Shown here: piece after piece, positions 19,529 to 55,525 of the stretch | How the letters are laid out: each line of letters starts with the position of its first letter | How positions within the stretch are numbered: the stretch's first letter is position 1 | Assembly: GCA_039961735.1 (NCBI GenBank) | Contig: JABRVX010000004.1 | Location: 3,220 to 67,219 of the forward strand | Origin: Fimbriimonadia bacterium | GTDB lineage: Bacteria > Armatimonadota > Fimbriimonadia > Fimbriimonadales > JABRVX01 | Direction: 5' to 3' | DNA: 64,000 bases | The notes under the pieces: generated by a model | The model's database searches: none | Told to the model about the DNA's origin: nothing | Seen by the model: the letters and a program-made list of their open reading frames with translations, nothing else | Made by a program: the position numbers and the translations under genes

Positions 19529-20013
19529 TACTTCTTGGCGGCAGCCAGCATCACGTCGATCTTTCTGGTCAAATAATCGCGGAACTTCGCGGGATCCGAT
19601 GTCAGTAGCCACACATCGTCTAGAGACTTCCACTCTGCGCGCTTGCCCTTGACGAACCGGGCTGCAATGAGGCTGCTCGATATGAGTTCATACTCCCTTA
19701 TGAACGAGTCGTTGCCGGGATCATCCACGTTGATGACCTGATACACCAGGCGCCCACTCTCGAGTTCCTTGGCATACACCTCTTGGACGATCTGGCCAGT
19801 CAGGTCCTCGATCTTGAGGCAGGTCGGGCAGCGCTGCGTGCGGTGGAAGTAGTAAAGCATCAGATCGGGAGCTCGGATCTCCGTTTGCTGTGTGGGTCCG
19901 GGACTCGACGTACTCTGGGTGCTCTGCGGGTTGCCCCCTCCCAGCCCGAGATAGGCCAGGCTGGCTCCGACGAACAGGAGAAGACCCCACTTCACTAAGC
20001 TAGCGGAGAGCAT
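19528..20013 (-). CDS. Membrane-anchored thioredoxin-fold protein (ArsF-family-like)
   Basis: The start ATG at 20013 overlaps the upstream TGA. N-terminal TM helix MLSASLVKWGLLLFVGASLAYLG. CxxC motif in 'YYFHRTQRCPTCLKIE'. Layout matches proteins named 'nitrophenyl compound nitroreductase subunit ArsF family' (from recollection). Confidence 0.5.
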   Translation of the reverse strand: MLSASLVKWGLLLFVGASLAYLGLGGGNPQSTQSTSSPGPTQQTEIRAPDLMLYYFHRTQRCPTCLKIEDLTGQIVQEVYAKELESGRLVYQVINVDDPGNDSFIREYELISSSLIAARFVKGKRAEWKSLDDVWLLTSDPAKFRDYLTRKIDVMLAAAKK

Positions 20014-20663: not shown

Positions 20664-21995
20664 TCACGATGACGTCGTCTCTCCGAAGAACGCTCCGAAC
20701 ACGATACCGGAGAGTGTTGCTAGTATTACTACCAGTAAGATGAACGCGAGGGTCTTGCGTGTACCCATCACGCTACGTATCACGAGCATATTGGGGAGCG
20801 ACAGGGCGGGTCCTGCGAGCAGGAGCGCCAGCGCAGGTCCTTTGCCCATACCGCTTCCTACCAGTCCTTGTACGATCGGCACCTCGGTCAGCGTGGCGAA
20901 GTACATGAATGCACCCGCCACCGACGCAAACAGGTTGGCCCACAGGGAGTTGCCGCCCACCGCCGCTGTTACCCACTCGGAGGGGATCAAGCCCTCGCTC
21001 CCGGGCCGCCCGAGCAGCGCTCCGGCGATCAACACACCACCCAATAGCAGCGGCATGATCTGTTTTGCGAAGCCGTAGGACGAGCCGAACCACTCCTTCC
21101 CCTCGCCCGAATCCGTGGCTAGTACGAGCGAAAGCCCGACCACACCTGCGGCGAAGGAGATCATGGGGGCACCGGGCACCACGACTACCAGTATCGCAAC
21201 CGGTAGCGCAACACACGCGAGCTTCCAGGCTTTCACACCCATCCAGGCTGTCATGATGAACCCGAGCGCGATTGCGCTGAGCGAGGTCAGCCACCACTTC
21301 ACGCCATAGATGGCCGACCATATACCCACACCTTGCTCCGGCTTGGCCCAGTTGGCGAAGACCAGAAGCGCGATCATGGATGCGAAGAACAGCGCGTTCT
21401 GCCAAAGCGGACGTGGTGCTTCGGGCTGGACTGTGTTGGCGGCCGCAGATGCCTTTGCCATCTCGTCGTTGCGGAACAGGAGATGCATGCACACACCGAT
21501 CACGATGCTGAACACCACTGCCCCAACGGCGCGTGCGACCCCTAGTTGCAGTCCTAGGATTCGCGCAGTCAGGATGATAGCGAGGACGTTGATGGCCGGA
21601 CCGGAGTACAGAAATGCCGTGGCCGGTCCCAATCCCGCCCCCATCCGATAGATGCCTGCAAACAGTGGGAGCACCGTGCACGAGCACACTGCTAGCACCG
21701 TACCAGACACCGACGCCACGCCATACGACAACAGCTTGTTTGCGCCGGCACCAAGGTAGCGCATGACCGATGCCTGGCTGACGAACACGGCCATCGCGCC
21801 GGCGATGAAGAAGGCGGGCACGAGACAGAGCAGGACGTGCTCCTGCGCATACCACCTCGCTAGATAGAGCGCTTCCCACAGGGCGTTCTTGACGCGGTGC
21901 GATTCCCGGAGCCACTCGATCGGCAGATAGAAAAAGGCGAGGAAGACGAAGAGCATGAGAAGAAGAACTCGCCACTCTTTCCGCCAATCGTACAT
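20664..21995 (-). CDS. PF03773-type permease (ArsP_1 / 'predicted permease' family)
   Basis: 443 aa and polytopic. The 'LAVCSCTVLPLFAGI' Cys pair and two-lobed topology are typical of the family. Operon position is directly after ArsR. Confidence 0.7.
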   Translation of the reverse strand: MYDWRKEWRVLLLMLFVFLAFFYLPIEWLRESHRVKNALWEALYLARWYAQEHVLLCLVPAFFIAGAMAVFVSQASVMRYLGAGANKLLSYGVASVSGTVLAVCSCTVLPLFAGIYRMGAGLGPATAFLYSGPAINVLAIILTARILGLQLGVARAVGAVVFSIVIGVCMHLLFRNDEMAKASAAANTVQPEAPRPLWQNALFFASMIALLVFANWAKPEQGVGIWSAIYGVKWWLTSLSAIALGFIMTAWMGVKAWKLACVALPVAILVVVVPGAPMISFAAGVVGLSLVLATDSGEGKEWFGSSYGFAKQIMPLLLGGVLIAGALLGRPGSEGLIPSEWVTAAVGGNSLWANLFASVAGAFMYFATLTEVPIVQGLVGSGMGKGPALALLLAGPALSLPNMLVIRSVMGTRKTLAFILLVVILATLSGIVFGAFFGETTSS

Positions 21996-37100: not shown

Positions 37101-37464
37101 CGGCGGCGACGCATTCCCTTACTACTTCCGCAAGGCAGGCGTTGGAAAGCTCATCGGCACGCGCACGTGGGGCGGCCTCGTCGGCCTCTCGTGGAATCCG
37201 GAACTGATAGATGGTGGGGTGCTTCGCGTACCCAGGCATGCCTTCTTCGAGACCGACGGCACGTGGGGAGTGGAGGGCTACGGCGTGGCCCCGGACATCG
37301 AGGTGGTTGACGATCCCGCGCTGATGGTAGATGGTGGCGATCCGCAGCTCGACGCTGCGATTCGACACATGCTGGACGAACTCAAGCGCAGGCCCTATGT
37401 GGCGCCCAAGACGCCCGAGTATCCGGACAGGAGCGGGATAGGACTGCATCCAAAGGACCGATAA
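34129..37464 (+). CDS. Tricorn protease homologue (S41 family; beta-propellers, PDZ and tail-specific protease core)
   Basis: Start at ATG 34129 (SD GGAGG). 'SAKHIVFTYSGNLWVMPRTGGVAQPLTS', repeated TolB/WD40-like 'SPDG' blades, then 'GYIHVPDT...DERWNGGG' with 'LINSLAGSGGDAFPYYFR...GTRTWGG' as the S41 core. Confidence 0.85.
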   Translation: MIGFFRSALTAASLGVLATGGIGCMMPLVLLIQDDSVAPHAGMIRYPDVSAKHIVFTYSGNLWVMPRTGGVAQPLTSAVGGEVFAKFSPDGSQVAFLGGYDAGSDIYTLPVEGGVPFRVTYHPNQEIPCDWTASGDILFFSYGRDLHGSQSQLMRVPASGGQPKKLPVPYGANGAISPDGKWLAYVLHSTDFSTWKRYTGGQATDIWLFHLETHQSKKITDWMGTDSLPMWHGDTVYYLSDDGPSHRLNIWAYDTKSGRRRQVTRYADFDVKWPSIGPGPDGKGEIVYQHGPDIRLLDLATGESKRVEVRIPGARPTLRARAVNAARYLSSFDLSPTGKRVVVSARGDVWSLPAEEGTLRNMTRTSGVFEREPTWSPDGKWIAYWSDESGEYELYLMPSDGSGETKKLTSLGAGYRQNLTWSPDSKNLVFQDEKGRICLISAEGGEPKVVDTDGSGYNSRVAWSHDSSWLVYTKLSNTRLSAVWLYNVAEDKATQVTAGVFPDSWPVFDRKGDYLFLASNRNVTSPVFDEFGGWRAVYANTDVLLAVPLRKDIKSPFLPKSDEESFKKDTKPAGEGDKKDDKPASDGDKSREEEKPLAIDLDGFESRAIRLPVPPGSFHSLNVTADGKLMYTRSGSGIKLFEMSGPQAQEQPVLAGVEQFTISADGKKLLVAVGDGLAVISASPNQKTEKMVPMQGMTANVEPREEWRQIFNDAWRLFRDYFYAGNMHGVDWPAIREQYSRMLEDCSSRGDLNYILGEMIGELNVGHAYIWEVGDVEQAPPANVGLLGCDYEVHRGAYRISRILGGAAWDDDARGPLGQPGVDVKVGDYVLAVNGVPIDVSKEIHAAFLNTAGRTITITVSENPVMDEKARDVVVKPTANEGALRYRTWVEKNRKYVEERSGGRVGYIHVPDTANNGLNELNRQFIGQMNKEALIVDERWNGGGQSPDKFIELLNRPALSYFHTRNGRNDPVPGISHLGPKCMLINSLAGSGGDAFPYYFRKAGVGKLIGTRTWGGLVGLSWNPELIDGGVLRVPRHAFFETDGTWGVEGYGVAPDIEVVDDPALMVDGGDPQLDAAIRHMLDELKRRPYVAPKTPEYPDRSGIGLHPKDR

Positions 37465-37515
37465 CCAGGCCGACTGAGACGTGACGTATCGTTAGGGTCA
37501 TGTGGGATTCCACGC

Positions 37516-37732
37516 ACTGTCATCCCGAGGGATCGGCAGCTAGCCTGTTCTGCCACACTATGCCTGCCACGAGCAACTGAGGCAACCCTTTCTGGTTCCT
37601 CCCGCGAAGCGCTGCACCCCGGTGGCCAAATCCCCGCACGCTGCACGCGCGATCACAAGGGGTTCGCTCAGTCGCTATCGTAGGATCACTACTAGCTCTC
37701 GGCATAGGCGTGCGCTCCGTCGGGATGACAGT
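37516..37732. repeat. 217-bp unit bounded by 17-nt inverted repeats (MITE-like)
   Basis: ACTGTCATCCCGAGGGA (37516-37532) matches the reverse complement of TCCGTCGGGATGACAGT (37716-37732) at 16 of 17 positions. A degenerate third copy, GGAATGACAGC, lies at 38033-38043. Confidence 0.5.
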
Positions 37733-37833
37733 CCCTTGGGTTCGCCGCCCGGTGATAGCATCGCGGTGCGCGGGAAGGTAGCATTGAGAGGCTGTTGCTG
37801 CACGCGCGAGAGCACCCCACAAGCCCACCCCGC

Positions 37834-38008
37834 CATGCTGAGTCTGCAGAAGCAAACGTCATGCTGAGCCTGTCGAAGCACGCGTCATGCTGAGCCCGTC
37901 TCCGTCATGCTGAGCCTGTCGAAGCATGTCCCCGCAAGCCGCATGCTCCCGGCTCAGGATACTACGTTTGCGACAACCGGCGGCATGCTTCGACAGGCTC
38001 AGCATGAC
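37834..38008. repeat. Cluster of at least 6 copies of a 23-25 nt palindromic REP-like unit GTCATGCTGAGCCTGTCGAAGCATG
   Basis: Direct copies at 37834-37854, 37858-37880, 37884-37900 (truncated) and 37904-37928. Inverted copies at 37941-37959 (degenerate) and 37984-38008. Each unit can fold through CATGCT/AGCATG. Confidence 0.8.
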
Positions 38009-38117
38009 GGTAGCCCAGCCCGGACCTATCTTGGAATGACAGCAAGCCGCGGCGGACCTAACTGCCTTGCATCCTCTCGGGGATTGACGAACCGACAGAC
38101 CGGGTCCGACACCGGCC

Positions 38118-38336
38118 CTACTTAGCGACTGGCTTCATTGCATGTGGGCACATGCCCTTGGAGCATGGACCGTAGGTCTTGCAGTTGCTCTTGTAGCGGA
38201 AGTTCCCGGTGTGGCGCAGAATGCTGACGTCCGGCGCACCGAGCTTGGGCTCGTAGGTCTCAACGTGGGCGACGGCCGTTGTCGCCAGGATGGCGGAGCC
38301 TAGGCTAAAGGCAAGCGCTTGCAGTGTCTTCTTCAT
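38118..38336 (-). CDS. Small secreted Cys-containing protein (72 aa), paralog A
   Basis: ATG 38336 with SD GGAGGG 7 nt upstream. Signal peptide MKKTLQALAFSLGSAILATTAVA. Shares 'LGAPD.SILRHTG.FR...NC...GPC.K..C' with 38479-38739. Confidence 0.65.
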   Translation of the reverse strand: MKKTLQALAFSLGSAILATTAVAHVETYEPKLGAPDVSILRHTGNFRYKSNCKTYGPCSKGMCPHAMKPVAK

Positions 38337-38431
38337 CGAAGACCCTCCATGGGTCGGACAAGTCTGTCGTGAGTGCACTGATTATGGCGGGGTGCCTGTC
38401 GCCGACGTCAACATGAATGACGCTAACGATA

Positions 38432-38455
38432 AGGCCCGGCCGAGGGGCCGGGCCT
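38432..38455 (-). terminator. Strong GC hairpin after paralog B
   Basis: AGGCCCGGCC-loop4-GGCCGGGCCT forms a 10-bp perfect stem 24 nt downstream of the stop at 38479. The minus strand then reads TATCGTT, a weak U-tract. Confidence 0.45.
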
Positions 38456-38478
38456 GACGACCTTTCTGCCGAGCAGAA

Positions 38479-38739
38479 CTACTTGGCGGCCGCGCCGCAG
38501 CAGGTGATCTTCGCAGGGCAACAGGCCGACTTCTTGACCATGGAGCCGCATGTGGACTTCGCACACGGCCCACACAGATCGCCGCAGTTCTTCATCGCAC
38601 GAAACTTGCCCGTGTGCCGCAGAATGCTGTAATCCGGAGCCCCGAGGCTGCTCGGCTGGCAGCAGTTTCGCCCCCCGAAACTGCTGGCGGACAGGGCCAG
38701 GGCCGCTGCCGCTACGATCAGAACGATGGCCTTTCTCAT
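38479..38739 (-). CDS. Small secreted Cys-rich protein (86 aa, 10 Cys after the signal peptide), paralog B
   Basis: SD GGAGG 9 nt upstream. Signal peptide MRKAIVLIVAAAALALSAS. The same conserved core as paralog A, plus CC pairs (NCCQP, ACCPAKITCCG). Confidence 0.65.
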   Translation of the reverse strand: MRKAIVLIVAAAALALSASSFGGRNCCQPSSLGAPDYSILRHTGKFRAMKNCGDLCGPCAKSTCGSMVKKSACCPAKITCCGAAAK

Positions 38740-38796
38740 TCCCAGATTCCTCCGTAGACTAGTTGGCGGATCGGCGCGCGCCCCCCTAAGAACAGC

Positions 38797-38822
38797 GGGC
38801 CGATTACCTTTGTAATCGGTCC
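38797..38822. promoter_or_regulatory. 11-bp-stem palindrome GGGCCGATTAC-CTTT-GTAATCGGTCC upstream of paralog B
   Basis: Hand-paired, with one G-T wobble. It lies 58 nt upstream of the ATG at 38739 in the divergent intergenic region. Confidence 0.35.
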
Positions 38823-38966
38823 GGGGCTGCCCCGCCTTACGCTCGAAATGCTAGTTTACCCTCTTGGCCGGCATTCCGCCCGGTGGACAGGGCGGCGAGC
38901 GCAACCGCACTAACTAGGCGCAGGTGGGCGACACTGGCTCGAAGAGTCGCGAGTCGTGCCAAGCCG

Positions 38967-38975
38967 TGATACAAT
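38967..38975 (+). promoter_or_regulatory. Extended -10 element TGATACAAT
   Basis: TGnTACAAT lies about 190 nt upstream of the PEP-CTERM gene ATG (39166). The -35 is weak. Confidence 0.3.
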
Positions 38976-39165
38976 ATGGGCACGGTCCCTTGGGTCTGAA
39001 TCCACGGCCAGTGCCGTGCGCCCGAGGTGATCGGAAACGCAATAAAGAGATGGAGTGATGCGCGCCATCTGGGCTAAGCGGAGTTAGGCGCGCGTTGGTG
39101 CGGTGGCGCCTAAGGCGCGCTATGTAGCGTCTAGGCGTCACCGTCGCCTGCAAAAGAGGGACATC

Positions 39166-40110
39166 ATGAAGCAGGTTTGCCATCTCGTAGCGGCGATATG
39201 CACAGCGTTCGTGCAATTAGGCACCCATGCGCTGGCGCAGGAGCAGTGCCGCCACGAAAAGCTGCTTTCCCAAGTCTACGATGTTGCAGCCACTCCGCAG
39301 TAGTATGGACCAACGCGAAGGGGGAAGTAGCGTACTATGCCAGTCCCACGTGTTCCTCGACGACTACCCTCTCTCGCGCAGCATCGTGGGTCCCGACTAC
39401 TCCGCAGGGGCCGCGTATCTCAACCGCCGCGGCGACGTGCTATGGACCCGCCCGGACCTGGACGGCTACACCGACATCTTCATCGACGACGTGAACTACA
39501 GCCGATCGCACTTCGGAAACGCGCCCAGAAACTACCATGCCTATTCGCGGGGCATGAACGACAATGGCGATATCGTCTGGGCGGGCATCGACTGGAACCT
39601 CGCCTACGGCTACTCGGACGTCTTCAAGAATCACGAGAACCTGTCGCTGGCTGTGTACGGAGATATACCTCGTGCGGCATTCCCGATGGGCATCAGCAAC
39701 ACTGGACAAGCGGTATGGATCGGCTTCCGGAAGGGACTCGAGTTCAAGAACACCATCTGGCGGGACACTACCAACATCTCGGGCCCACCGGCACTCCCAC
39801 CGATGCACCGCAGATTGACAACTGGGGGCGCGTAATGTGGTGGGCGTACGGCCCGCAGTTCAACGGGTGGGTGCGGACCTTCGTGGACTCGCTGGACATC
39901 TCGGCGAATGCGCTCGGCGACGACGTGTGGAACTACACCTGCAAGGGCGTCAAGATAGGCCCTAACGGCCACGTCTTCTGAATCGCGGTGGACCTTCGTA
40001 CGAACCTGGCGGACGTCTGGCTATCCACACCGGTGCCCGAGCCGAGTGGAGCGTTGGGATTGGGATTGCTCCTTATCTGCATCGCATACCGGCGGTGTAG
40101 CCGGCGGTAG
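39166..40110 (+). pseudogene. Decayed PEP-CTERM secreted repeat protein gene (three frame changes plus an in-frame TGA)
   Basis: Signal peptide MKQVCHLVAAICTAFVQLGTHALA in frame 1 up to the TAG at 39301. The protein-like text moves to frame 3 near 39297, frame 2 near 39344 and back to frame 1 near 39785. After the TGA at 39979 the same frame continues to 'PVPEPSGALGLGLLLICIAYRRCSRR' and a TAG at 40108. Confidence 0.6.
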
Positions 40111-41215: not shown

Positions 41216-41244
41216 TTGACAACCAGCGAGAATGCCCGTATCAT
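41216..41244 (+). promoter_or_regulatory. Near-consensus sigma70 promoter TTGACA-N17-TATCAT
   Basis: Exact TTGACA (41216-41221), a 17-nt spacer, then TATCAT (41239-41244). It is followed by GGAGGTGGAGA and a TTG start at 41285. Confidence 0.5.
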
Positions 41245-41284
41245 CAGGGGGCCGCAGACGTCAATATGGCGTTGGAGGTGGAGA

Positions 41285-42580
41285 TTGCGCTGTTACTGGG
41301 TTCCGGCCTCGATCTTGGCGCTGAGCCCGCTGCTCGGGTGGGCGCAGGGCGCGATGATAGAGCCACTTCCGTATCCGTTCGCTGCGCTGGATTGGAGCGC
41401 GGAGAGCGGGCGTGAGGAAGCCGAGATGTGGCTGCGCGTCTCAGGCCTTCCCCCGATTGACGTTCGCTGTACTCCACTCAGCTTTGAATGGACCTTCCAG
41501 GGCTGTGGGGCGCACCTCGCGGACCCCGAGCATCATCCGCCGGGTGCGGAGCTTTACCTGCGGTTCACCAGTCCTGGCGTTTGCCACGTCTCTGTGGATG
41601 TGTCGGAGAACGGATCGGAAGGATGTACGCGGACTTGGCATGCCGAAGCCGATGTCTATGTACTGGGCGGGCCCATCAGTGTGCAGATTAGGGATCACCC
41701 CCAGCACTACGATATCCATCAGGACAGCACGACATGTTGGTATCTATCATACTACGGCTACAACGTTGGCTACCTCGTCCCGCGCAAGAGGTCAGAGCAG
41801 GCGACCAGCGAGGCTTGGATATCAGCCGACCGTGCAGCCCAACAACCCCCGGGAACCCGTTTTCGCTGGACCGTCACGCATCCTGGTGTTTTCACCTCTA
41901 ACCCCGCCCTAAACGGTACGACCCAAGCCACCAGCATCACGATCAAGGCGAACGGCCCGAGCAACCCGGGCCAGATCCAGGTTCGCCTGGAATACGAGTT
42001 GGACATCCCCGGCTGGGGCACGGCCGTGGTGCCGGACGACACGGACAACGTGCCGAGGCCACCCCACAACGTCCCGTCTTCGAACTACAGACGCTTCACG
42101 GGCCACAAGCCGATCCGCGTCGAGTTGGCCGAGATGGTGGTGAACCCGATCAACACGATATCGGTAATCGGCCCTCCGGAATGGGTATACCAGGACGACT
42201 ACTACTACACGCTCTTCGATCAGCTCTCGGCTGCGATGAGAGGCGTGTGGGTGCAAGAGCGTTTCCCCGACGGTGTTCCCACGCATTACAATGACGGGAG
42301 GCTCCTGCCTCAGCCGTTCCTGTGGAACGGTGCCACCGGTTCCTACTGGATCACCCTGATTAACAACGCTCAGAACCCAACTCGGCCTTTCGGCACATTC
42401 GGACCCGACCACATCATACTAGCCGATACTAGGGAATGGCCCTCTGATGGACCGCCAGGGCTCGGTCCGCTCCGGCACGAGTATTGGGCGGGAACCAAGG
42501 GCGCCTTTGCCAACGATGGGGGATGCAAGGTCGGTGAGTTCCAGATGAGCATGTGGACCGACGCGACGGCTCACTGGTGA
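41285..42580 (+). CDS. Secreted hypothetical protein (about 431 aa), no family recognised
   Basis: I propose the TTG at 41285 as the start (SD GGAGG 6 nt upstream). This gives the signal peptide (M)RCYWVPASILALSPLLGWAQG. Trp/Tyr-rich and beta-rich in appearance. Confidence 0.6.
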   Translation: MRCYWVPASILALSPLLGWAQGAMIEPLPYPFAALDWSAESGREEAEMWLRVSGLPPIDVRCTPLSFEWTFQGCGAHLADPEHHPPGAELYLRFTSPGVCHVSVDVSENGSEGCTRTWHAEADVYVLGGPISVQIRDHPQHYDIHQDSTTCWYLSYYGYNVGYLVPRKRSEQATSEAWISADRAAQQPPGTRFRWTVTHPGVFTSNPALNGTTQATSITIKANGPSNPGQIQVRLEYELDIPGWGTAVVPDDTDNVPRPPHNVPSSNYRRFTGHKPIRVELAEMVVNPINTISVIGPPEWVYQDDYYYTLFDQLSAAMRGVWVQERFPDGVPTHYNDGRLLPQPFLWNGATGSYWITLINNAQNPTRPFGTFGPDHIILADTREWPSDGPPGLGPLRHEYWAGTKGAFANDGGCKVGEFQMSMWTDATAHW

Positions 42581-42604
42581 TAGTGAGAGACTGGAGTTCA
42601 TGGG

Positions 42605-43837
42605 ATGCTGAACCTCATACCATGGTCGATACTTCTGGTGGCGCAGACGTCCGACGGAGGACGCGGCGCCTTCACTGACGGCGTGTTGGGCCTATGGTGT
42701 CTGGCCGACGCGGTGGCTTACGTTCGGCCCAGGCCCGCCGAAGCGACCACGATTCGGCTCGATGTCGTGGACACCCGAGGCTCACTCCTAACAGACGAGA
42801 ATGGTAACCTGTTGGCGAAGCGAGCGGACGGGAGTATTCTGATCGAGAATCGCGCATTCCGTCTTGTGCCGTGCGACGTCCTCAGGGTTGCCAAGGGTCA
42901 GCTACCGGAGCGCATCGCTGTTCTGCTTTGGCCACCACCGCCAAAGGGAGACGCTGCGATACTGCCGAGCTCGCCGGAAGGGCGGGCGGTGTTGGCGTTT
43001 CTCAAGCGACCCGACAGCCGCGGCTACCTTCTTCTGGATAGCATCTCGCCGGGAGTGTTCTTCTACGAGGTGCGGCCTCCGGACGGCGGGCCGACGGTAG
43101 TCGGTCCGCTGGACCTGGTAAGCCCCCTGTCCTTCTGGCCAGTCGGGTGGCCAGTTGCTGAGTGCCACGAGCAGCTGGCATTCCGTGGCCTGGTGAATGG
43201 CGTTGCCTCCACGCTCGTGCTTCCCGAGCATGCGTCCCGAGCGAGTGGACTCGAGCTGCTGGCATGGGCTGCACCAGCCCGGCTTCGCTTGAGTTGGCCG
43301 TTCATCCCCACTCCGGATGTTGGACTGTCCCAGGTTGGAGGAGACTATGAAGCGTGGTTCCGTAGGACCATCTACCCCGCTGTTCTGAGTCGCACACAGT
43401 CTGGTGACGACCAAGAGGCTGCACTTGCCCTAAGCGTGCTCTTGTACAACGATGACTGGCAGTACATGGAGCAGTTCGCTGACCGCGTCGTTGCGCTGAC
43501 TGAGAAGTCCGAGTCGGTAGCCACCGACGTGATCGGGTGGCTCAGACGAGCGCCGGACCCGGACGTCGCCTACAAGAAGCTGTTGCAATCCAAGCATCCT
43601 TTAGTCCTGGTTCAAACCCTGGAGGAAATCACCCGGGGCAAGCGGGTCGCATGTCGTGCCGCAGTAAAGGGTGTTTTGGGGCACACCAGCGCTCGCGTGC
43701 TCTTCCGAGCGATGCATGCACTCTCGATCCTGGATAATGACCCCGACCACGATCCAGGATCGGGCGGGGTTGTCGCCAAGATCGATCCGGGCTCGCGTGC
43801 CGCGGAGCTCCTGGAATACTGGCGCAACAAACCCTAA
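42605..43837 (+). CDS. Hypothetical protein (410 aa) with N-terminal hydrophobic segment and C-terminal helical-repeat-like region
   Basis: Lies 24 nt after the previous stop, with SD GGAG. N-terminus MLNLIPWSILLVAQTS. The C-terminal 'PLVLVQTLEEITRGKRVACRAAVKGVLGHTSARVLFRAMHALSIL' looks HEAT/ARM-like. Confidence 0.6.
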   Translation: MLNLIPWSILLVAQTSDGGRGAFTDGVLGLWCLADAVAYVRPRPAEATTIRLDVVDTRGSLLTDENGNLLAKRADGSILIENRAFRLVPCDVLRVAKGQLPERIAVLLWPPPPKGDAAILPSSPEGRAVLAFLKRPDSRGYLLLDSISPGVFFYEVRPPDGGPTVVGPLDLVSPLSFWPVGWPVAECHEQLAFRGLVNGVASTLVLPEHASRASGLELLAWAAPARLRLSWPFIPTPDVGLSQVGGDYEAWFRRTIYPAVLSRTQSGDDQEAALALSVLLYNDDWQYMEQFADRVVALTEKSESVATDVIGWLRRAPDPDVAYKKLLQSKHPLVLVQTLEEITRGKRVACRAAVKGVLGHTSARVLFRAMHALSILDNDPDHDPGSGGVVAKIDPGSRAAELLEYWRNKP

Positions 43838-43915
43838 CGGCCGCCCGAGCAGGCATCCGGCGGTTGGGGCCGGTGGTGGGCTGGGACTAGCCACGGACAG
43901 GGTTGCGTACATACG

Positions 43916-45790
43916 CTATCTCCGCGGCAGCCAGACCTCCATCTCACCCGGCTCGCGGTTGTCCCACAGACAGTACGGGACCAGCGTGAGCCTCTTCGGT
44001 GTCTGCGGAGGTACCTCCGGTGAGTACAGCTTTCCCTCCCACGCCGATGGGGGCACGACTACGCCATCCACATCTAACAGGTGCACGCCGCCGAGCACCT
44101 CACCTCGGCGCGCCTCGACCTTCGGCTCCACCTTGACGAATGGCAGACCGGGCCCGTTGTCTACCTGCTCGGCGCAGTACACGATAGGTCCCATACGAAA
44201 AGCCACGCGTCCGGTGTCGGCACGAACGAGCGGGTTGGCATACACGGGTTCCGGCGTCATGCCGAAGTCCACTTCTACGCTGTCACTGTTCGACCACACG
44301 CGTCGCATGGTGGCATACCCATCGGACACGTGCCACCCGCCGGCGCGCAGCGACTCGGCGTTGCAGGACCACGCCGGAATGCGCAGATGCAAGCCGAGCT
44401 CCGCCGGCCCATCGCACTGCACGCTGAGTTTCACCCTGCCGTTCCATGGGTATTCCGTTTCCTGTCGCAAAACTACCTTGCGGCCACCGATTTCCACCTG
44501 CACCGACCCTGCTATGTACAGTGCCACCCACACCTCGTCACCGGAAACCGCGTAGGCATACGAGCCGAGCGATGCGAGGAGACGCGCGATGTTGGGTGGA
44601 CAGCACGCACACCCGAACCATTCTTGTCGGTGGTGCGTACCACTCGACGCTAGTGGGTTTTCGTAAAAGTACTTCGTGCCGTCCAGCGAGATGCCGGAAA
44701 GGAAACCGTTGTACAGCGCCAGCTCCATCACGTCGGCGTATTCCGACTTGCCTTCGATCAGCCACATGCGATGCGCCCATAGAATCAGCGCAATGGCCGC
44801 GCAGGTCTCTGCGTAGGCAGTCTCGTTCGGCAGGTCGTAGTCCCGTGTGAAGCCTTCATTCGATGCGGAGGGACCTACCCCACCTGTCACGTACATACGC
44901 TTCTTGGTTAGGTTGTCCCACAGACGGTGTAGAGCTGTTAGCAGTGTCTCGTCCTTCGTCCAGTCGTACAGGTCTGCCATGCCGGAGAACAGATAGAGCG
45001 CGCGAACTGCGTGACCTACCACCTCGCTCTGCTCGCGCACGGGCAAGTGGTCTTGGGTGTAGCCGCCGTCGTACTCCCCGCGCTTGAACCACAACCCCGC
45101 CCAATCCACGATGTTTCGTGGTGCGTTGGGGTCGCGAAGCTCTGCCTCGAAGGGCGACGGGCGACTGCCTCGCGCATCTATGAAGAACTGCGCGAGCTCG
45201 CGGTACTTGTCGTCTCCCGTGGCACGCGCCAGGCGAAACAGCGCGAGCTCGATCTCCGGGTGGCCGCAATAACCGAGCCGCTTGCCGGGACCGAAGATGG
45301 AAGCGATGTGGTCGGCGTTCTTCACGGCGATATCCAAGAGGCGCCTGCTTCCCGTCGCTTCGTAGTGCGCTACGGCCGCCTCGAACAGGTGCCCCGCGCA
45401 GTACAGCTCGTGGTTCATCGAAAGGTTCTGCCACTTCTGCTCGGGGTGCTCCACGGTGAAGTAGGAGTTCAGATAGCCGTCGGCCTCTTGCGCCGCCTCG
45501 AACGCCTCGATGCTCTCGTTTACGGCGGCTTCGAGCTTGGGGTCCGGATGCGTGGCAAGCGAGTAGGCGGCTCCCTCGAGCCACTTGTACACATCCGAGT
45601 CGTTGAACCGATAGCCCTCGAAGCCCCCTTCCATCTTGCCGCCTGCCCTCAGGATGTTGTTCAAGCGGCCGGTTCCGGTGATTTGCTCGAACTGCTGATG
45701 CAGGGTGACCTCGCGGTTGGTCTTCTGGCGCGGGGCCCAGAAGGTGTCCTCGAATGTGACTTGGGTGAAGGGCACGGGTCGAAGCTTCAT
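43916..45790 (-). CDS. Glycoside hydrolase family 127 (DUF1680; beta-L-arabinofuranosidase-like)
   Basis: 'VTFEDTFWAPRQKTNREVTLHQQFEQITGTGRLNNI', '(alpha/alpha)6' core motifs and 'CACCPPNIARLLASL', the Cys-rich metal/catalytic site typical of GH127. Confidence 0.8.
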   Translation of the reverse strand: MKLRPVPFTQVTFEDTFWAPRQKTNREVTLHQQFEQITGTGRLNNILRAGGKMEGGFEGYRFNDSDVYKWLEGAAYSLATHPDPKLEAAVNESIEAFEAAQEADGYLNSYFTVEHPEQKWQNLSMNHELYCAGHLFEAAVAHYEATGSRRLLDIAVKNADHIASIFGPGKRLGYCGHPEIELALFRLARATGDDKYRELAQFFIDARGSRPSPFEAELRDPNAPRNIVDWAGLWFKRGEYDGGYTQDHLPVREQSEVVGHAVRALYLFSGMADLYDWTKDETLLTALHRLWDNLTKKRMYVTGGVGPSASNEGFTRDYDLPNETAYAETCAAIALILWAHRMWLIEGKSEYADVMELALYNGFLSGISLDGTKYFYENPLASSGTHHRQEWFGCACCPPNIARLLASLGSYAYAVSGDEVWVALYIAGSVQVEIGGRKVVLRQETEYPWNGRVKLSVQCDGPAELGLHLRIPAWSCNAESLRAGGWHVSDGYATMRRVWSNSDSVEVDFGMTPEPVYANPLVRADTGRVAFRMGPIVYCAEQVDNGPGLPFVKVEPKVEARRGEVLGGVHLLDVDGVVVPPSAWEGKLYSPEVPPQTPKRLTLVPYCLWDNREPGEMEVWLPRR

Positions 45791-45964
45791 CGGTGTTCTC
45801 CTAGTTCTTGAGCTGATGCGCCGTCTGGGGACCAGGCGCTACTTCTCCATCCCGGCTCGCCTCCCTCCCCCACCCGCCAAATGTCCTGGGCTCAGCCTTC
45901 ACCAGCTTCGCGGCCGCGTTAGCGATGTGCTGTGTGGCGCACCATAGGAACCTGCTGTTGCCCT

Positions 45965-47281
45965 TTAGCCGGCTCGGACGACTTCGGGTTCCGGCTTTTC
46001 CAGGTAGATGGTCGAGGTGCTGTCGTCGTAGGCGAGCAGCTCGGCGTAGCGGCCCCAGGCGATGGCTAGCTCCAACTGCCGCGCGGCATCTTCGGGCGGA
46101 AACTCCAGCTCCAGCGCTGCGAGCGTCACGTCGTACTCCAGCCGCTTGTCGTCGGCCGCCCTCAGGAGTCGTAGCAACCATCGGAACAGTGGCAGCCTGC
46201 GAAGCCGCATGGCGAAGATCTCCTTTCGCGCCAGGATGCTCGCCTCGGCAAAGGTGTCGCCTAGCGGTGTGGATGAGATGTCCCCCTGCGCCAGCGTGGC
46301 AAAGCCTAACAACTCGGCTGCCTCTGTTAGTGCCAGCAGATGATCGGAGTCCGCCTTGAGATCGGTCGCCAGACGGAAGATGTCGGCCTTACGCTCTGGC
46401 TCCTCTTGAAGCCGCTCCATCATACCGATCAGGTCGTCGATCTCGACGTCCGGCAGCGCACGTGTCCGCCCGGGCTCGCCCGGAGCCGTGCCCATCTCGA
46501 GGTACTCCGGCTGCGTCTGGCCGGCAAGCGTGGCATAGAGCTGGTCCACGATTTCCGCGAACGCTCGCGAGTGACGGTCGCGTGGGTGTGGTAGTGCGAC
46601 GTTGATGTGTGCGATGATCCTGCCAGGGTCCTTATCCATCACCACGATTCGGTCTGCCATGAACACCGCTTCCTCGATGTTATGTGTCACCATCAGGATG
46701 GCCTTGGTAGGGATGTTACCACTGAGCCACAGTTCCATCAACTCGCCCCGAAGTGACTCCGCACTCAGTACGTCCAGCGCAGAGAATGGCTCATCGAGGC
46801 AGAGTAGCTCCGGCTCTACCGCCATGGCACGTGCAAACCCCGTCTTCTGGCGCATGCCACCGGAGAGCTCACGTGGGTAGGCAGTCTCGAACCCGTCCAG
46901 ACCTACCATGTCCAGCAAGGAGATCGCTCGCTTCCTCCGCTCTTCGGCCGGCACACCGCGCGCTTGCAGCGCAACCTCTACGTTCTGTTGTACGTTCAGC
47001 CACGGGAAGAGTGCGAAGGTCTGAAAGACTATCGTGGAATGGGGATTGACTCCTACCAGAGGTTGTCCGCGGTAGATCACCTCACCCTCGGTGGGACGCT
47101 GTAGACCCGTCACGATTCGAAGGAGGGTGCTCTTGCCGCATCCCGACGGCCCGACGAGAAGCACGAACTCGCCTTCTTTGATGCCGAGGTTGATATCCTT
47201 GACCGCGACGAACTCCCGCCGCGTCCCCCGGTATCGCTGAGTAACGTCTTTCAACAGAACCAGACTGCTATCATTCGTCAT
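45965..47281 (-). CDS. ABC transporter ATP-binding protein (NitT/TauT-like) with a C-terminal extension of about 180 aa
   Basis: Walker A GPSGCGKST, signature LSGGMRQK, Walker B LLCLDEPFSALD. The extra C-terminal domain ('...LLGFATLAQGDISSTPLG...') resembles the AAA-associated C-terminal domain of this subfamily. Confidence 0.8.
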   Translation of the reverse strand: MTNDSSLVLLKDVTQRYRGTRREFVAVKDINLGIKEGEFVLLVGPSGCGKSTLLRIVTGLQRPTEGEVIYRGQPLVGVNPHSTIVFQTFALFPWLNVQQNVEVALQARGVPAEERRKRAISLLDMVGLDGFETAYPRELSGGMRQKTGFARAMAVEPELLCLDEPFSALDVLSAESLRGELMELWLSGNIPTKAILMVTHNIEEAVFMADRIVVMDKDPGRIIAHINVALPHPRDRHSRAFAEIVDQLYATLAGQTQPEYLEMGTAPGEPGRTRALPDVEIDDLIGMMERLQEEPERKADIFRLATDLKADSDHLLALTEAAELLGFATLAQGDISSTPLGDTFAEASILARKEIFAMRLRRLPLFRWLLRLLRAADDKRLEYDVTLAALELEFPPEDAARQLELAIAWGRYAELLAYDDSTSTIYLEKPEPEVVRAG

Positions 47282-47285
47282 ACTA

Positions 47286-49010
<1,725 letters not shown>

Positions 49011-49268
49011 CAGATCCTCTCCTGGCAGGGCGGAACCGAGCTAACGACGGAGCCCGCGAGGTATCGAGGTGCGAGGGCAACTGAACCCATCGTCAGCCCT
49101 CGACATGGGTTCTTCGAGCGTGCGTGTCTTGTGTGCGTGAACACTCATCGGGATGCCCTCCAGTGAGTCGAGAACTTTTGATGGTAAGCGAGCATCGGGC
49201 CCCGCTAGCGGAACCCGAACCGAATGGTCCGGAACGTCGCGCTCGAGCGGCGCGTCCGAGGTGAGATG

Positions 49269-49298
49269 AGTGTACTTGCCGCGACCGCCGTGGGTCAA
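49269..49298 (-). promoter_or_regulatory. Candidate promoter TTGACC-N18-TACACT for the ABC operon leader
   Basis: Read on the minus strand. It would give a 5' leader of about 250 nt before the permease ATG at 49010. Confidence 0.3.
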
Positions 49299-49480
49299 GT
49301 CCCGCCGACGCCCCCTCGAGCTCGCTGCCGGTCGCCTGAGGGAAGACCGGTGATTCCCGGAGCGAGAGGGAGGGCGTGCGAGCTGCTCTATCCAGACCTC
49401 GAGGGGTCAGTGCCGGCGATAGAGAGCAGCTGTCGGCCCTGCTATGACCCGCCCGAAAATCGGTTGCTGTTACCCGTTCT

Positions 49481-50284
49481 CTACTCCACCTCGTAGGTTG
49501 CCGTCACAACCACGGTCGTCACCAGATCGCCTGGCTGGATCGTCACCTCCTCCGCATCTTCAGGCTCCGCACCAGGCTGCAGATCCACGGTAGTCTGTGC
49601 GTGGGGTGAAGCCGGTGCGTATCCGTAGTACCCGCCGTAGCGGCCGTAGTCGTAGGGATACCCTTCGTTGCACGATGTCAGGCGACCGAGTTTGCCACCG
49701 AGCGCCTTCGCGAGCTCTGCGGCTTTCTTGCGAGCCGTCTCCGCTGCCTTGCCGCGTCCCGCCGCCCGGATCTTACTGACGTCCTCCACCGAGTACACCA
49801 GTCCGCCGACGCGATTGGCGCCTACCTTTACCGCTGAGTCTACGATCTCGGCGACTCTGTTGAGATCCCGGATTCGCACGCGGAACGACTCCTCGCAATT
49901 CCACTTCTTAGCGTCCTGACTGCGAGGAATCCACTCCGACGCGAGAGCGAACCGCTGCGTCTTGATGTCCTTGCTCGACACACCTGCCTCGCCCAGGGTA
50001 GACAGGATTCTCGCGCAGGTAGACTTCACGTAATCCTTGGCCGCCTTCGCCGTCGTTTGCGATTGGTACACGCCGATCGTCACTTCGGCGAACTCGGGCT
50101 TCGTACGAACGATGCAAGTGCCAGTAGCGGTCACACCGATGGGCCGCCCGTACAGATCGGGCCCGACTGGGGTAGCTGCCTCGGCCTTCGCGGCGGGCCG
50201 GAGCATTGACCACCCAACCAAGGCAATCACTACCACGAAGACGACGTACAGGAAGCGCAGCAGCGCCTTCTGGAATTCGCTCAT
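49481..50284 (-). CDS. SIMPL (DUF541) domain-containing protein, membrane-anchored
   Basis: N-terminal TM helix FLYVVFVVVIALVGW. 'PEFAEVTIGVYQSQTTAKAAKDYV...GVSSKDIKTQRF' and 'GKAAETARKKAAELAKALGGKLGRL' match the SIMPL pattern. Confidence 0.7.
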   Translation of the reverse strand: MSEFQKALLRFLYVVFVVVIALVGWSMLRPAAKAEAATPVGPDLYGRPIGVTATGTCIVRTKPEFAEVTIGVYQSQTTAKAAKDYVKSTCARILSTLGEAGVSSKDIKTQRFALASEWIPRSQDAKKWNCEESFRVRIRDLNRVAEIVDSAVKVGANRVGGLVYSVEDVSKIRAAGRGKAAETARKKAAELAKALGGKLGRLTSCNEGYPYDYGRYGGYYGYAPASPHAQTTVDLQPGAEPEDAEEVTIQPGDLVTTVVVTATYEVE

Positions 50285-50506
50285 AGTTAGCCTCCTATCT
50301 GATGATGCGAGCCGTCCCGGACCGGGCGACCGATTGCAGGACTGTCAAGCTCCAGCCTCGCAGTCTCGACGTGCTGTCCCACCGCCCGCCCGTCGGAGGG
50401 CGTCGCAGCGCGACGTGGAGTATCTTCACCTGCGTCCCCATACCGTCAACACGCAGGCGAAATAGGCAGCCGTACCTGACCGGTCGCCTCGCAGGCCCGC
50501 GAGACG

Positions 50507-51280
50507 TTAGAACGAGGTGCACATGCTGAATCCGATGACAGCCAGTCTGCGGTCCGCGCCGCTAGCCCGTAGATCGGAATCGAGCAACTCGGTGAGAGAC
50601 AAGGAGGTGCATAGGTTCCAGCCGGGTAGCAGTTCGTGCTCGAGCGCCATCTGCAGTGTGGCCGCGTTCCACGCGGCCTTCCCGACGCCCACGTACACAT
50701 CGTTGAACTTGCGCGAACCGACCGACACGCCCACCGACACGTCGAGCGAGGTCCGAGTATCCATCTCGTATGAGTAGCACAGACCAATCTCGGTGTAGTG
50801 CGCGCCGCGGTAGTGGACAAAGTCCGCGGCATGGGAGACATATGTGGTAAAGGGCCCGACGGGATAGTGCAGCGACACCACCGCTTCACCAGTCGCCGGT
50901 GAGTCCGCCTGGTTAGGGTACGCGAAGAACTGGAGAGACGTCTCCACTCCCAGGTTTCCCGCATTCGTCTGATAGGACAGGAAAAGGTCCGCTTCGTTCA
51001 GCGAGGTGCCATCGCGTCGATCGAGACCGAAGTTTGCCCATCCGGTTGCTTCGAACGGGCCCGAGCCTACAGTTACTGAAGGCTGAAGAACCGGCCCCTC
51101 GCTCCACGCCAGTCCACGCCACACGTAGCGCGTGAAGAACTCCATTTGAACGCTTACAGCGGGTCTGACCGGCTCGTCCACATTCGCGTCGGCGGCACTC
51201 GCTGAGCACACGGCCGATAGTGACAACCAGACAACCGGTAACACACTATTGGGCTTATAGCGTCGCGTGCGTCTCGTCAT
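50507..51280 (-). CDS. Putative outer-membrane beta-barrel (TorF/Gcw_chp-like porin)
   Basis: Start at ATG 51280 (MTRRTRRYKPN; signal ...CSASA/AD). 'FFTRYVWRGLAWSEGPVLQPSVTV' is TorF-family-like. Alternating beta-strand pattern, ending in ...SF. Confidence 0.5.
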   Translation of the reverse strand: MTRRTRRYKPNSVLPVVWLSLSAVCSASAADANVDEPVRPAVSVQMEFFTRYVWRGLAWSEGPVLQPSVTVGSGPFEATGWANFGLDRRDGTSLNEADLFLSYQTNAGNLGVETSLQFFAYPNQADSPATGEAVVSLHYPVGPFTTYVSHAADFVHYRGAHYTEIGLCYSYEMDTRTSLDVSVGVSVGSRKFNDVYVGVGKAAWNAATLQMALEHELLPGWNLCTSLSLTELLDSDLRASGADRRLAVIGFSMCTSF

Positions 51281-51654
51281 GAGTGGCGTCTCCCGAAGCC
51301 GGTATTCCATACCGGGTCGGCAGGTCCACCCGGCACATTGAGCAGGGAGCGCCCACTGCTCCTGCCGAACGTTCCAAGCGGCAACCGGGGTGGTGCGAGT
51401 TGTCCCAGCCCCAGACGACTCCCCCAACACCGACTACCGTTACGCGCTGCCGACGCAATCACCCCGCAACGCGATCGCGACCCTTCCTAATGGGTTCGAC
51501 GCAGCGGCATGGAGATTTCAGTCCCAGAACAGGTGCCGTTGCACCTTGGGAAACCAGAGACTCGCCGAGTCGGACCTTCAATCTCGATCGCACTCTGGCT
51601 GTAAGGCCACCCCAGATCCAGCCTCCGAAATCTGGCTGGTTCGTGCGGATGCCG

Positions 51655-52008
51655 TGGTGGAGGCGGGGGGAGTTGAACCCCCTTCCAAAGCCGATGCCTC
51701 TCGGGCGTCTACGAGCGTAGCCTGCCTTCTGATCTCGCGGAGCGCTAACCCGCAGGCGGGGATGCCACTCTCGCCAGTCCGGTTTCTTCTCGCCTCTCCG
51801 TGCTACGGACCGAAGCCGGAGACGCTAGTCGGATTTGTCCACGCCTCCTTCGCGCCTACCGACCCGGCGCTGGGAGACGGCTGCAGCTAATTAGGCAGCG
51901 TAAGCGTAAGAGTTCGCACTTACTGTTTGTGCCGCTTTTTTACGAGGCCAACGGCACCTCGGCTCGCAGCTCGAGCGCAAACCGACCCTGTCGAGCCCGT
52001 TCGCCCCC
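51655..52008 (-). ncRNA. ssrA: tmRNA (SsrA), 354 nt, standard one-piece
   Basis: The 5' GGGGGCG pairs with 3' CGCCTCC-ACCA, including a G3:U wobble. T arm GGGGG-TTCAACT-CCCCC. 'GGCCTCGTAAAAAAGCGGCAC' precedes the tag ORF GCG AAC TCT TAC GCT TAC GCT GCC TAA (51891-51917), which encodes ANSYAYAA. A perfect TATAAT at 52020-52025 lies 11 nt upstream. Confidence 0.9.
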
Positions 52009-54394: not shown

Positions 54395-55525
54395 ATGCAG
54401 CTAATCGGCAAGGAAGAAGTACGCGAGATGTTGGAGCCGCGCGAGGGTCCGTGCGTGACCATCACGATGCCGCTCGAGCGGATGAGCGCGAAGGCGCGCG
54501 CCAACGGCACGAAGCTGCGAAACCTGTTGCGCCAGGCGCTGCGGTCGCTACTGAATGGCGGAATGAAGCGAGCCGAAGCGGAGGCGATGCTCGAGCCCGG
54601 CCACGCCCTAGCAGCCGAGGGCGCTCCCTGGCACGAGGGGATGAGCGGCTTGGCCTTCCACTTCGCCCCTGGTTACGCGAAAAAGCTCTTGGTGCCCATC
54701 TCGCTTCCCGAGCTGGCGGTCGTAGGTTCGAGGTTCTACATCAAGCCACTCCTATCGCTTCTCGGCGCGGAAGCCACGTTTGCCGTACTCGCCCTCAGCT
54801 CGAATTCACATCGCCTGGTGCGAGCCACGCGGTTCTCGACTCTAGCAACACTGCTCGAAGGGCCAGAGGAAGGCAGGAGGCCCACTCGCAAGGAGAAGCA
54901 ACTGCAGTTTCGCTCGGCGCCTTCGACCTCGGGAGGCGTAGTATTCCATGGACATGGTGCGGGTGACGAGTTGAAGAAGGAGGAGGTCACCAAGGCCTTT
55001 CGCGAGGTAGCTCGAGCGGTGAGTGAGGCCCTCCGCGGCTCGCAAGAGCCGCTTGTCGTGGCCTGCGTCGAGTATCTGTTCCCTCTGTATCGAGATGTCA
55101 ACAACTACCCGCACCTCGTCGGCGTCTGTGCCGCAGGTAACCCGGATGAGTGGACCGATGACGAGCTGCGCGCGCGAGCCTGGCAGGTAGTCGAGCCGGT
55201 CTTTGGCGCGGGTCGGATGGCAGCCGCCCAGCGCTACAGGGAAGCCAGAGAAGCGGGTAAGGCCGCGGACAACCTGGGCGAGTGCCTGCTTGCAGCGCAG
55301 GAGGGCCGGCTGGAAGTCCTGTACGTGCCCGTCGGCATCCAGGCGTGGGGTCGCTTCGACTCCGAGGCCGGACGCGTGGAGGTCCGCTCGGAGCCTGCGG
55401 CAGGCGACGAGGACTTGCTGAACCTCGCCGCCGCTCTCGCCCTCGCCGGAGGTGCCGCTGTATATGCAGTGCATCCGGACGAGATGCCCGAACATGGATT
55501 GGTGGCCGGGCTGGTTCGCTACTGA
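54395..55525 (+). CDS. baeRF3-like protein (bacterial member of the archaeo-eukaryotic release factor aeRF1 superfamily)
   Basis: 'CVTITMPLER...NGTKLRNLLRQA...GLAFHFAPGY...VVGSRFYIKPLLSLL...FAVLALSSNSHRLV' and the C-terminal '...EDLLNLAAALALAGGAAVYAVHPDEMPEHGLVAGLVRY' match my recollection of baeRF family 3/7 proteins. Confidence 0.5.
   Translation: MQLIGKEEVREMLEPREGPCVTITMPLERMSAKARANGTKLRNLLRQALRSLLNGGMKRAEAEAMLEPGHALAAEGAPWHEGMSGLAFHFAPGYAKKLLVPISLPELAVVGSRFYIKPLLSLLGAEATFAVLALSSNSHRLVRATRFSTLATLLEGPEEGRRPTRKEKQLQFRSAPSTSGGVVFHGHGAGDELKKEEVTKAFREVARAVSEALRGSQEPLVVACVEYLFPLYRDVNNYPHLVGVCAAGNPDEWTDDELRARAWQVVEPVFGAGRMAAAQRYREAREAGKAADNLGECLLAAQEGRLEVLYVPVGIQAWGRFDSEAGRVEVRSEPAAGDEDLLNLAAALALAGGAAVYAVHPDEMPEHGLVAGLVRY

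Follow-up and report, generated by a model that had tools for sequence, protein, structure and literature searches.

Bufferins are small, Cys-containing proteins that are exported through the Sec pathway and act as copper chelators in the periplasm (PMC11626156, PMC12452194). Surveys have additionally recorded hundreds of uncharacterised small open reading frames (ORFs) that encode a signal peptide and from 1 to 18 Cys and that adjoin genes for multinuclear non-haem iron oxidative (MNIO) enzymes, along with precursors of a 'CxxxxC' family and some precursor genes that stand alone (PMC12452194). In this study we describe a pair of adjacent genes, termed A and B, that reside at positions 38118-38739 of a 64,000-nucleotide stretch of DNA (hereafter the window) from the Fimbriimonadia bacterium assembly GCA_039961735.1 (contig JABRVX010000004.1, positions 3,220 to 67,219). 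Our analysis indicates that A and B are real protein-coding genes, that their products likely are exported by Sec, and that they and their homologs form an orphan family of about seven small-protein sequences from a narrow Fimbriimonadales clade (Armatimonadota). The family is previously undescribed; its general kind, that of small exported Cys-rich proteins, is already known. The role that we tentatively propose for it is one of thiol-based buffering in the cell envelope. The two genes and the parts of their products that are discussed below are:

38739..38479, minus strand: gene B (P0001), encoding an 86-residue precursor, MRKAIVLIVAAAALALSASSFGGRNCCQPSSLGAPDYSILRHTGKFRAMKNCGDLCGPCAKSTCGSMVKKSACCPAKITCCGAAAK
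38336..38118, minus strand: gene A (P0002), encoding a 72-residue precursor when read from its ATG
38599..38646, minus strand: core of B, L32-R47, LGAPDYSILRHTGKFR, which aligns with A and with the remote homolog P0007
38196..38243, minus strand: core of A, L32-R47, LGAPDVSILRHTGNFR, which aligns with B and P0007
38482..38598, minus strand: Cys-rich C-terminal part of B, codons 48-86, with three family-invariant Cys and a fast-evolving poly-Cys tail

A sequence-only reading of the window had proposed that A and B are tandem paralogs with a common LGAPD...FR core, each preceded by a strong Shine-Dalgarno sequence (SD) and each starting with a Sec-type signal peptide, and all of these points hold. 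A BLASTP alignment of the two proteins shows 23 identities over 41 residues (56%) at E=1e-12, so their likeness is not due to chance, and the common stretch comprises the core LGAPD(V/Y)SILRHTG(N/K)FR followed by three aligned Cys. The two genes are tandem duplicates; no further paralog was found by tblastn in the window or in the related loci that were fetched. The SD GGAGG is located 9 nucleotides upstream of the B ATG and 7 nucleotides upstream of the A ATG, while the mechanically called ORF of A reaches further upstream to a GTG at 38378 (MKKTLQALAFSLGSAILATTAVAHVETYEPKLGAPDVSILRHTGNFRYKSNCKTYGPCSKGMCPHAMKPVAK). The signal peptides were assigned heuristically, from n-, h- and c-region features and Kyte-Doolittle hydropathy. 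Both proteins exhibit a K/R-rich n-region, a hydrophobic core (best 10-residue Kyte-Doolittle mean of 2.0 in A and 3.2 in B) and a probable cleavage site with small residues at -3 and -1, which falls between AVA and HVE in A and either between ASS and FGG or between ALS-A and S in B. Removal of a predicted 23-residue leader from A would leave a mature protein of 49 residues that begins with His and contains 3 Cys and 3 His, with a net charge of +5 and an isoelectric point (pI) of 9.4. Removal of a predicted 20-residue leader from B would leave 66 residues with 10 Cys, a net charge of +8 and a pI of 9.2. The Cys counts of the earlier reading (3 in A and 10 in B past the signal peptide, including the NCCQP and ACCPAKITCCG doublets) are likewise correct, so that Cys constitute 15% of mature B as compared to 3 of the 49 residues of mature A. 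Outside of the core the Cys-rich remainders of A and B diverge, as the sequence-only reading had noted; beyond the Cys common to the family, B bears two N-terminal Cys plus its variable poly-Cys tail. Annotation of the Fimbriimonadia metagenome-assembled genome lists the pair under HRF45_01485 and HRF45_01490, both hypothetical proteins.

That A and B are real genes is indicated by the pattern of substitution among their relatives, by the conservation of their starts, SDs and frames, and by the conservation of the pair itself. Related contigs that carry B and then A exhibit 76-89% nucleotide identity, this order is present in all related loci that span both genes (L001-L008 and L011), and the start codons, SDs and frames are kept in at least four lineages. 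Ratios of nonsynonymous to synonymous substitution (dN/dS, Nei-Gojobori) are 0.22-0.34 for A overall (0.09-0.30 for its mature part) and 0.28-0.53 for B overall. Selection on B appears to differ from zone to zone. Codons 1-30, which encode the leader plus FGGRNCCQPS, have a dN of 0 and a dS of 0.04-0.14 against a background dS of 0.3-0.5; this low level of synonymous change (Fisher p = 2e-4 to 7e-4 in each of three pairwise comparisons, which are not mutually independent) points to constraint at the nucleotide level. In codons 31-47, which encode the core, a dS of 0.6-2.4 is combined with a dN/dS of 0.01-0.05, indicating very strong purifying selection on the protein. Codons 48-86 have a dN/dS of 0.48-0.64, by which the tail evolves fast at values that remain below 1 and at which positive selection is not demonstrable. 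The first 43 residues of B are perfectly conserved while its C-terminal region diverges. This divergence extends to the Cys themselves, as 8-10 Cys per 66 residues are retained while their positions shift. For example, neither of the two terminal CC doublets is present in the B ortholog of L004, which has instead acquired SCCPCC. The A stop codon of L001 (8144-8146) is changed from TAG to TAT, giving a 177-residue read-through ORF; the stop is kept in L007 and L008, whose A gene otherwise is identical to that of L001, and in the slightly different L011, and its loss reflects either polymorphism or an error of assembly. Antisense ORFs overlapping B, one of which in L004 is in frame with a neighbouring EamA gene, are not kept in the window and were dismissed.

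The sequence-only reading could assign A and B to no family and suggested a search for homologs, holding that the frames would be spurious if no homologs existed and no expression could be detected. The searches returned orthologs and one remote homolog, P0007, that are under purifying selection. Orthologs of A include P0004 (85%) and P0005 (76%), and orthologs of B are present in L001-L008 and L011. When A, B and P0007 were compared with Pfam, NCBIfam and PHROGs, no family emerged, with nothing in Pfam at E<=10, and a PDB profile search gave no relative (nothing below E=0.07); a lone library line, a hantavirus ITAM motif with an E-value of 0.31, was taken as noise. Two word-index searches of 5.8e9 proteins, one with P0007 in the profile, returned orthologs and nothing else, while an exhaustive HMMER profile search of 1.84e9 representatives returned four matches that include P0007 (70 residues, E=1.4e-4, MKVLFSLAAVLAIAASCLACKNCYSPRLGAADMSIFNYTKMYRHANDPCKEADGGQCGGGCCGMEMKKDK). 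The profile match P0006 (908 residues) was rejected as a low-complexity repeat artefact. P0007 has the core motif together with the three Cys and starts with a signal peptide; its identity is 41-45% with A and 32-37% with B. A scan of GTDB species representatives located one locus, in Fimbriimonadales AMX-MBFR-61, and Joint Genome Institute (JGI) metagenome contigs gave 0 matches to a degenerate pattern covering A, B and P0007 or to further patterns. Residues that are invariant in 7 of 7 distinct sequences are P, L-G-A, D, S-I, T, the three Cys and a C-terminal Lys, with the Cys spaced as C-x5-7-C-x4-C and the C-x4-C pair present in every family member. The residues that flank these Cys are GMCPHAM in A, CCGMEM in P0007 and GACPHAG in P0005. 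Net charge among members ranges from 0 to +8, with the A ortholog of L007 at 0 (pI 7.0) and P0007 at +2. AlphaFold2 modeling with 6-sequence alignments gave no confident fold for mature A or mature B (predicted local distance difference test scores of 47.9 and 39.5, respectively).

Analysis of the neighbourhoods of the homologs, which also had been suggested, revealed one gene that is conserved beside the family in all lineages and a second that is found beside P0007:

40216..41121, plus strand: EamA/DMT-family transporter gene (Pfam EamA, E=9e-47), divergent from B
L009 1533-3410 and L010 922-2817: heavy-metal P1B-type ATPase gene, whose product has an SPC transmembrane motif

In L009 the EamA gene (P0011) is divergent from P0007 across 236 nucleotides, and P0011 is 57% identical to the window EamA at the protein level and 76% identical at the nucleotide level. 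P0007 therefore is a positional ortholog. The ATPase gene lies 235 nucleotides downstream of P0007 on the same strand. Its product scores 554 bits against TIGR01525 and 469 bits against TIGR01512, both of which exceed the cutoff, and from reading of the sequence it apparently is without a separate N-terminal metal-binding domain. This feature and the SPC motif together suggest the Co/Zn/Fe-type P1B-4 subgroup. An Rfam scan of L009 and L010 gave no known riboswitch upstream of the ATPase.

Given this picture, the reading that we favour, though only tentatively, is that A and B serve in the cell envelope as thiol-based buffers of metals or of redox state. Once exported by Sec and freed of their signal peptides, the proteins of ~5-7 kDa would act in the envelope via their thiols. 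They may bind or buffer a thiophilic metal (of the Cu(I), Zn, Cd or Co class) or may serve as sacrificial redox buffers, with the three invariant Cys and nearby His or Met providing the common site and the variable Cys-dense tail of B providing added metallothionein-like capacity. Additionally, a hairpin that occludes the ribosome-binding site may gate translation of B. The sequence-only reading had listed a periplasmic metal- or redox-binding protein, a secreted signal or antimicrobial peptide and the substrate of an unlinked modification enzyme as options, and our results do not decisively separate these. The first of them gains weak support from the three invariant Cys, from the Cys-dense shifting tail and from the ATPase beside P0007. 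A pure disulfide scaffold usually contains an even number of Cys, whereas the number that is invariant in this family is odd; this is in keeping with the proposed role, as is the presence of His or Met close to the Cys in several members (GMCPHAM, CCGMEM). That the tail of B keeps its Cys count while the Cys positions move suggests selection on composition, as occurs in metal-thiolate binders, and misfits a fixed disulfide knot. The absence of a predicted autonomous fold is compatible with peptides that are disordered in their apo form, a weak point as the alignment comprises six sequences. Finally, the bufferins provide a precedent.

A number of observations weigh against such a role. The link to the ATPase comes from one genome, in which a strong intrinsic terminator follows P0007, indicating that P0007 and the ATPase gene are separate transcription units. 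Downstream neighbours in the window and its close relatives are different, as A is followed in the window and in L004 by a convergent gene for a Tricorn-like S41 protease and in L001 by a gene for a xylose-isomerase-like TIM-barrel protein. Our Pfam scan of the window covered 53 of the 93 listed ORFs of at least 150 residues, several of them without any Pfam match, and among the scanned ORFs no metal regulator was present; the surroundings of the pair yielded no gene for a metal-responsive regulator, a metallochaperone or efflux. Conservation of the invariant Cys does not extend to the His and Met beside them (GACPHAG in P0005), and there is no sequence-level match to metal-binding families in Pfam, NCBIfam or PDB. 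Moreover, unmodified Cys thiols are prone to oxidation in a diderm periplasm, and known periplasmic Cu(I) binders rely chiefly on Met and His, with bufferins requiring enzymatic conversion of their Cys.

Several putative regulatory elements are located around B:

38740..38861, minus strand: conserved intergenic region on the 5' side of B, with 85-94% identity between three lineages
38796-38823: palindrome 5' of B, CGGGCCGATTAC-N4-GTAATCGGTCCG
38713..38756, minus strand: predicted hairpin over the B start, in which the SD GGAGGAA pairs with codons 4-9 and the AUG is in the loop
38432..38455, minus strand: GC-rich stem-loop in the spacer from B to A, AGGCCCGGCC-4-GGCCGGGCCT, whose T tail is weak and which gives a terminator-like match

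RNAalifold and RNAfold predict free energies for the hairpin of -13.8 to -17.4 kcal/mol (z-scores from -0.8 to -2.6). Its closing pair is U-A in the window versus A-U in L001 and L004, a single compensatory double change at a site where the constrained part of B shows one of its rare synonymous differences; this covariation is drawn from three sequences and is thin. The hairpin sits within the zone of low dS at codons 1-30 and is a possible reason for that suppression, and positions 38650-38756 may constitute a translational control element of B. The palindrome contains perfect 8+8 arms (CCGATTAC-N4-GTAATCGG), with 12-nucleotide arms that are 92% complementary, and occurs once in the window where 0.14 occurrences are expected by chance. 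It is kept at the same place in L001, L002, L003 and L011 and with one mismatch in L004, where it lies inside the divergent spacer shared by EamA and B, and is a candidate operator or 5' untranslated-region hairpin. The stem between B and A is maintained in L001 and L004 via G-C to G-U changes and resembles a partial terminator or an element that stabilises mRNA.

On the downstream side of A there is a cluster of repeats at 37500-38015 that resemble repetitive extragenic palindromic (REP) sequences or miniature inverted-repeat transposable elements, with direct and inverted REP-like repeats at 37830-38015. It contains four direct copies of ~24 nucleotides (CGTCATGCTGAGCCTGTCGAAGCA) plus one inverted copy, which can form long hairpins, and a second inverted repeat (37516-37535 / 37713-37732). 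A related hairpin is present at the same position in L004, L005 and L006. An Rfam scan of 37400-39400 gave sub-threshold matches on these REP-like hairpins alone (AaHKsRNA41). The other side of the pair is occupied by a decayed gene:

39166-40110, plus strand: decayed PEP-CTERM gene, consisting of a frameshifted, internally deleted part (39166-39949) and a PEP-CTERM tail (39988-40110)

The intact 407-residue counterpart in L001 matches the window in three frames with residues 66-204 (~140 codons) deleted, and the tail matches TIGR02595 at 22.8 bits versus a cutoff of 16. The accessory-looking setting that the sequence-only reading had described, with repeats on one side and a decayed PEP-CTERM gene on the other, therefore is what we find. 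A protease-inhibitor role, as could be imagined from the S41 protease gene convergent with A, was dropped given that this adjacency is absent in L001, L011 and L009.

A different explanation, which we consider unlikely, is that A and B are disulfide-stabilised secreted peptides that act on other cells, such as a Sec-dependent bacteriocin, a defensin-like antimicrobial or a signalling peptide. The conserved N-terminal core would then be a pro-region or scaffold and the fast Cys-rich C-terminus the active part. The invariance of the N-terminal 43 residues of B over a C-terminus with a dN/dS of 0.48-0.64 resembles toxin-type evolution, and the Sec leaders, the cationic nature of both window proteins and the tandem duplication of genes confined to one lineage are in keeping with this explanation. 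However, dN/dS in the tail remains below 1, positive charge is not conserved (0 for the A ortholog of L007 and +2 for P0007) and the Cys number is odd in A. Defensin- and knottin-type folds also hold their Cys fixed, unlike the shifting Cys in the tail of B. No immunity gene, dedicated or ABC exporter or outer-membrane secretion gene is adjacent to the family in any of the four contexts examined, and together with the unconserved charge this weakens the antimicrobial option of the sequence-only reading. The Fimbriimonadia host is presumably diderm, in which case Sec by itself reaches the periplasm only and a secreted peptide would need a further secretion step.

Rather less likely is that A and B are envelope accessory or regulatory partners of the EamA/DMT transporter, which they might modulate or sense in its export of a thiol or amino-acid substrate, or that they have an unrelated structural role that requires neither metal nor modification. 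EamA is the sole neighbour conserved across all lineages of the family, and it is divergent from the family gene across a short spacer both in L009 and in L004, where the spacer has 123 nucleotides, is wholly homologous to window positions 38740-38861 and includes the conserved palindrome. The window EamA has sub-threshold NCBIfam matches to a generic carboxylate/amino acid/amine transporter (104 bits) and, second, to an O-acetylserine/cysteine exporter (66.7 bits). It nevertheless falls far below the cutoff of every NCBIfam equivalog, and the adjacency perhaps reflects mere vertical inheritance among close relatives. Beside three EamA homologs from other organisms (42-45% identity) there is no small Cys-rich gene. 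What lies between EamA and B also varies, with three genes in L001, the pseudogene remnant in the window and none in L004, a series that shows what appears to be stepwise gene loss across lineages.

We regard as doubtful the proposal that A and B are Sec-signal precursors of ribosomally made, post-translationally modified peptides (RiPPs), bufferin-like MNIO substrates whose enzyme is encoded elsewhere in the genome. In that case the invariant leader and LGAPDxSILRHT would be read by the enzyme and the Cys would be converted, for example to thiooxazoles, prior to export. The architecture fits such precursors, with a signal peptide and an N-terminal part that is highly conserved, followed by a C-terminal part that is rich in Cys and variable, small ORFs with signal peptides beside MNIO genes are known in the hundreds, and the C-x4-C pair of all members is reminiscent of the published 'CxxxxC' precursor family (PMC12452194). 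That published family was found only in Pseudomonadati (PMC12452194), however, and A and B give no DUF2282 match at E<=10. No MNIO/DUF692, DUF2063, DoxX, radical-SAM, YcaO or lanthipeptide enzyme was present among the scanned window ORFs, leaving the modification-substrate option of the sequence-only reading without local support. Precomputed Pfam matches of the neighbours in L001, L004, L009 and L010 likewise contain none of these families. The TIM-barrel gene downstream of A in L001 was considered as an MNIO enzyme and dropped, as its sole match is AP_endonuc_2 and it carries an EAKQKEP motif. We take this motif to resemble the xylose-isomerase signature, and the product looks like a sugar isomerase. 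Similarly doubtful is the broader suggestion that the family represents a new class of Sec-exported thiol peptide, either an unmodified functional analogue of the bufferins that buffers soft metals in the envelope or a RiPP family with an unlinked and possibly novel enzyme, in which B would be gated by its hairpin.

Finally, that A and B are spurious chance frames, an idea for which one could cite their shortness, their annotation merely as hypothetical proteins and the many overlapping ORFs on both strands of this GC-rich region, is effectively refuted by dN/dS values well under 1 with changes mostly at synonymous sites, by the conserved starts, SDs and frames, and by the paralogy of A and B together with a remote homolog at a syntenic position.

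Several features of the wider window were also recorded. The tmRNA 3' end directly abuts EamA in L009 (1-35), while in the window ~10.5 kb (41216-51655) parts EamA from the tmRNA gene (51655-52008, minus strand). This segment contains two unannotated large ORFs and GH127, ABC transporter, SIMPL and MipA-like genes, and may represent either an insertion of an island at the tmRNA gene or the counterpart of a deletion in the L009 lineage. Unrelated to the pair is a gene for a bacterial archaeo-eukaryotic release-factor-like protein (54395-55525, plus strand; baeRF family 3/7, E=1e-32) near a PAS-GGDEF gene. At 17-20 kb from the pair there is a cluster of envelope redox and thiol-related genes with no shown link to A or B, comprising MsrA (17846-18574), a DsbD_2-type thiol-disulfide membrane protein (18839-19633) and an ArsP_1 permease (20664-21995).

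To our knowledge almost no small proteins of the Armatimonadota have been experimentally characterised. If the thiol or metal role is true, then this phylum would gain a small, lineage-specific buffer of metals or of redox state in its envelope, and the family would be a further example, beside the bufferins, of Sec-exported Cys-rich mini-proteins. Its present value is in the annotation of a real gene family and as a candidate for peptide-level study, and it bears on no major open question.

For completeness, we compare the family with known systems. Sec-dependent class II bacteriocins and defensin-like peptides are similar to A and B in their Sec leader, in their Cys, in the small cationic peptide that is seen in the window and in having lineage-restricted duplicated genes. 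They differ in that A and B are without immunity or transport genes nearby, have an unconserved charge (0 to +8) and vary in both the number and positions of their Cys. B resembles metallothioneins (SmtA/BmtA) in its Cys density, CC doublets and small size, in lacking a predicted unliganded fold, and in a sequence that evolves fast yet keeps its Cys content. In contrast, metallothioneins are cytoplasmic and without signal peptides, A has only 3 Cys, neither protein gives a Pfam or NCBIfam match to them (E<=10), and the conserved non-Cys core has no counterpart there. As regards the bufferins, we know of no counterpart among them to the LGAPDxSILRHTGxFR core; A and B also lack a match to DUF2282 (PF10048), MNIO, DUF2063 and DoxX genes were not found in the scanned window ORFs or related loci, and the host taxon here is Armatimonadota. 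The likenesses are a size of about 60-90 residues, conserved Cys, a presumed periplasmic destination, a C-x4-C pair and, through the ATPase adjacent to P0007, a possible link to metal stress. A Sec-type leader on a small Cys precursor is likewise common to both, as judged heuristically for A and B from the K/R n-region, hydrophobic core and AXA-like site. By kind, then, the family is one of small exported Cys-rich proteins, for which a role is tentatively proposed from sequence, and its closest functional analogues are the bufferins and other MNIO-modified precursors (Buf1/DUF2282, Buf2, Buf_EGKCG/oxazolin and 'CxxxxC'; PMC11626156, PMC12452194).

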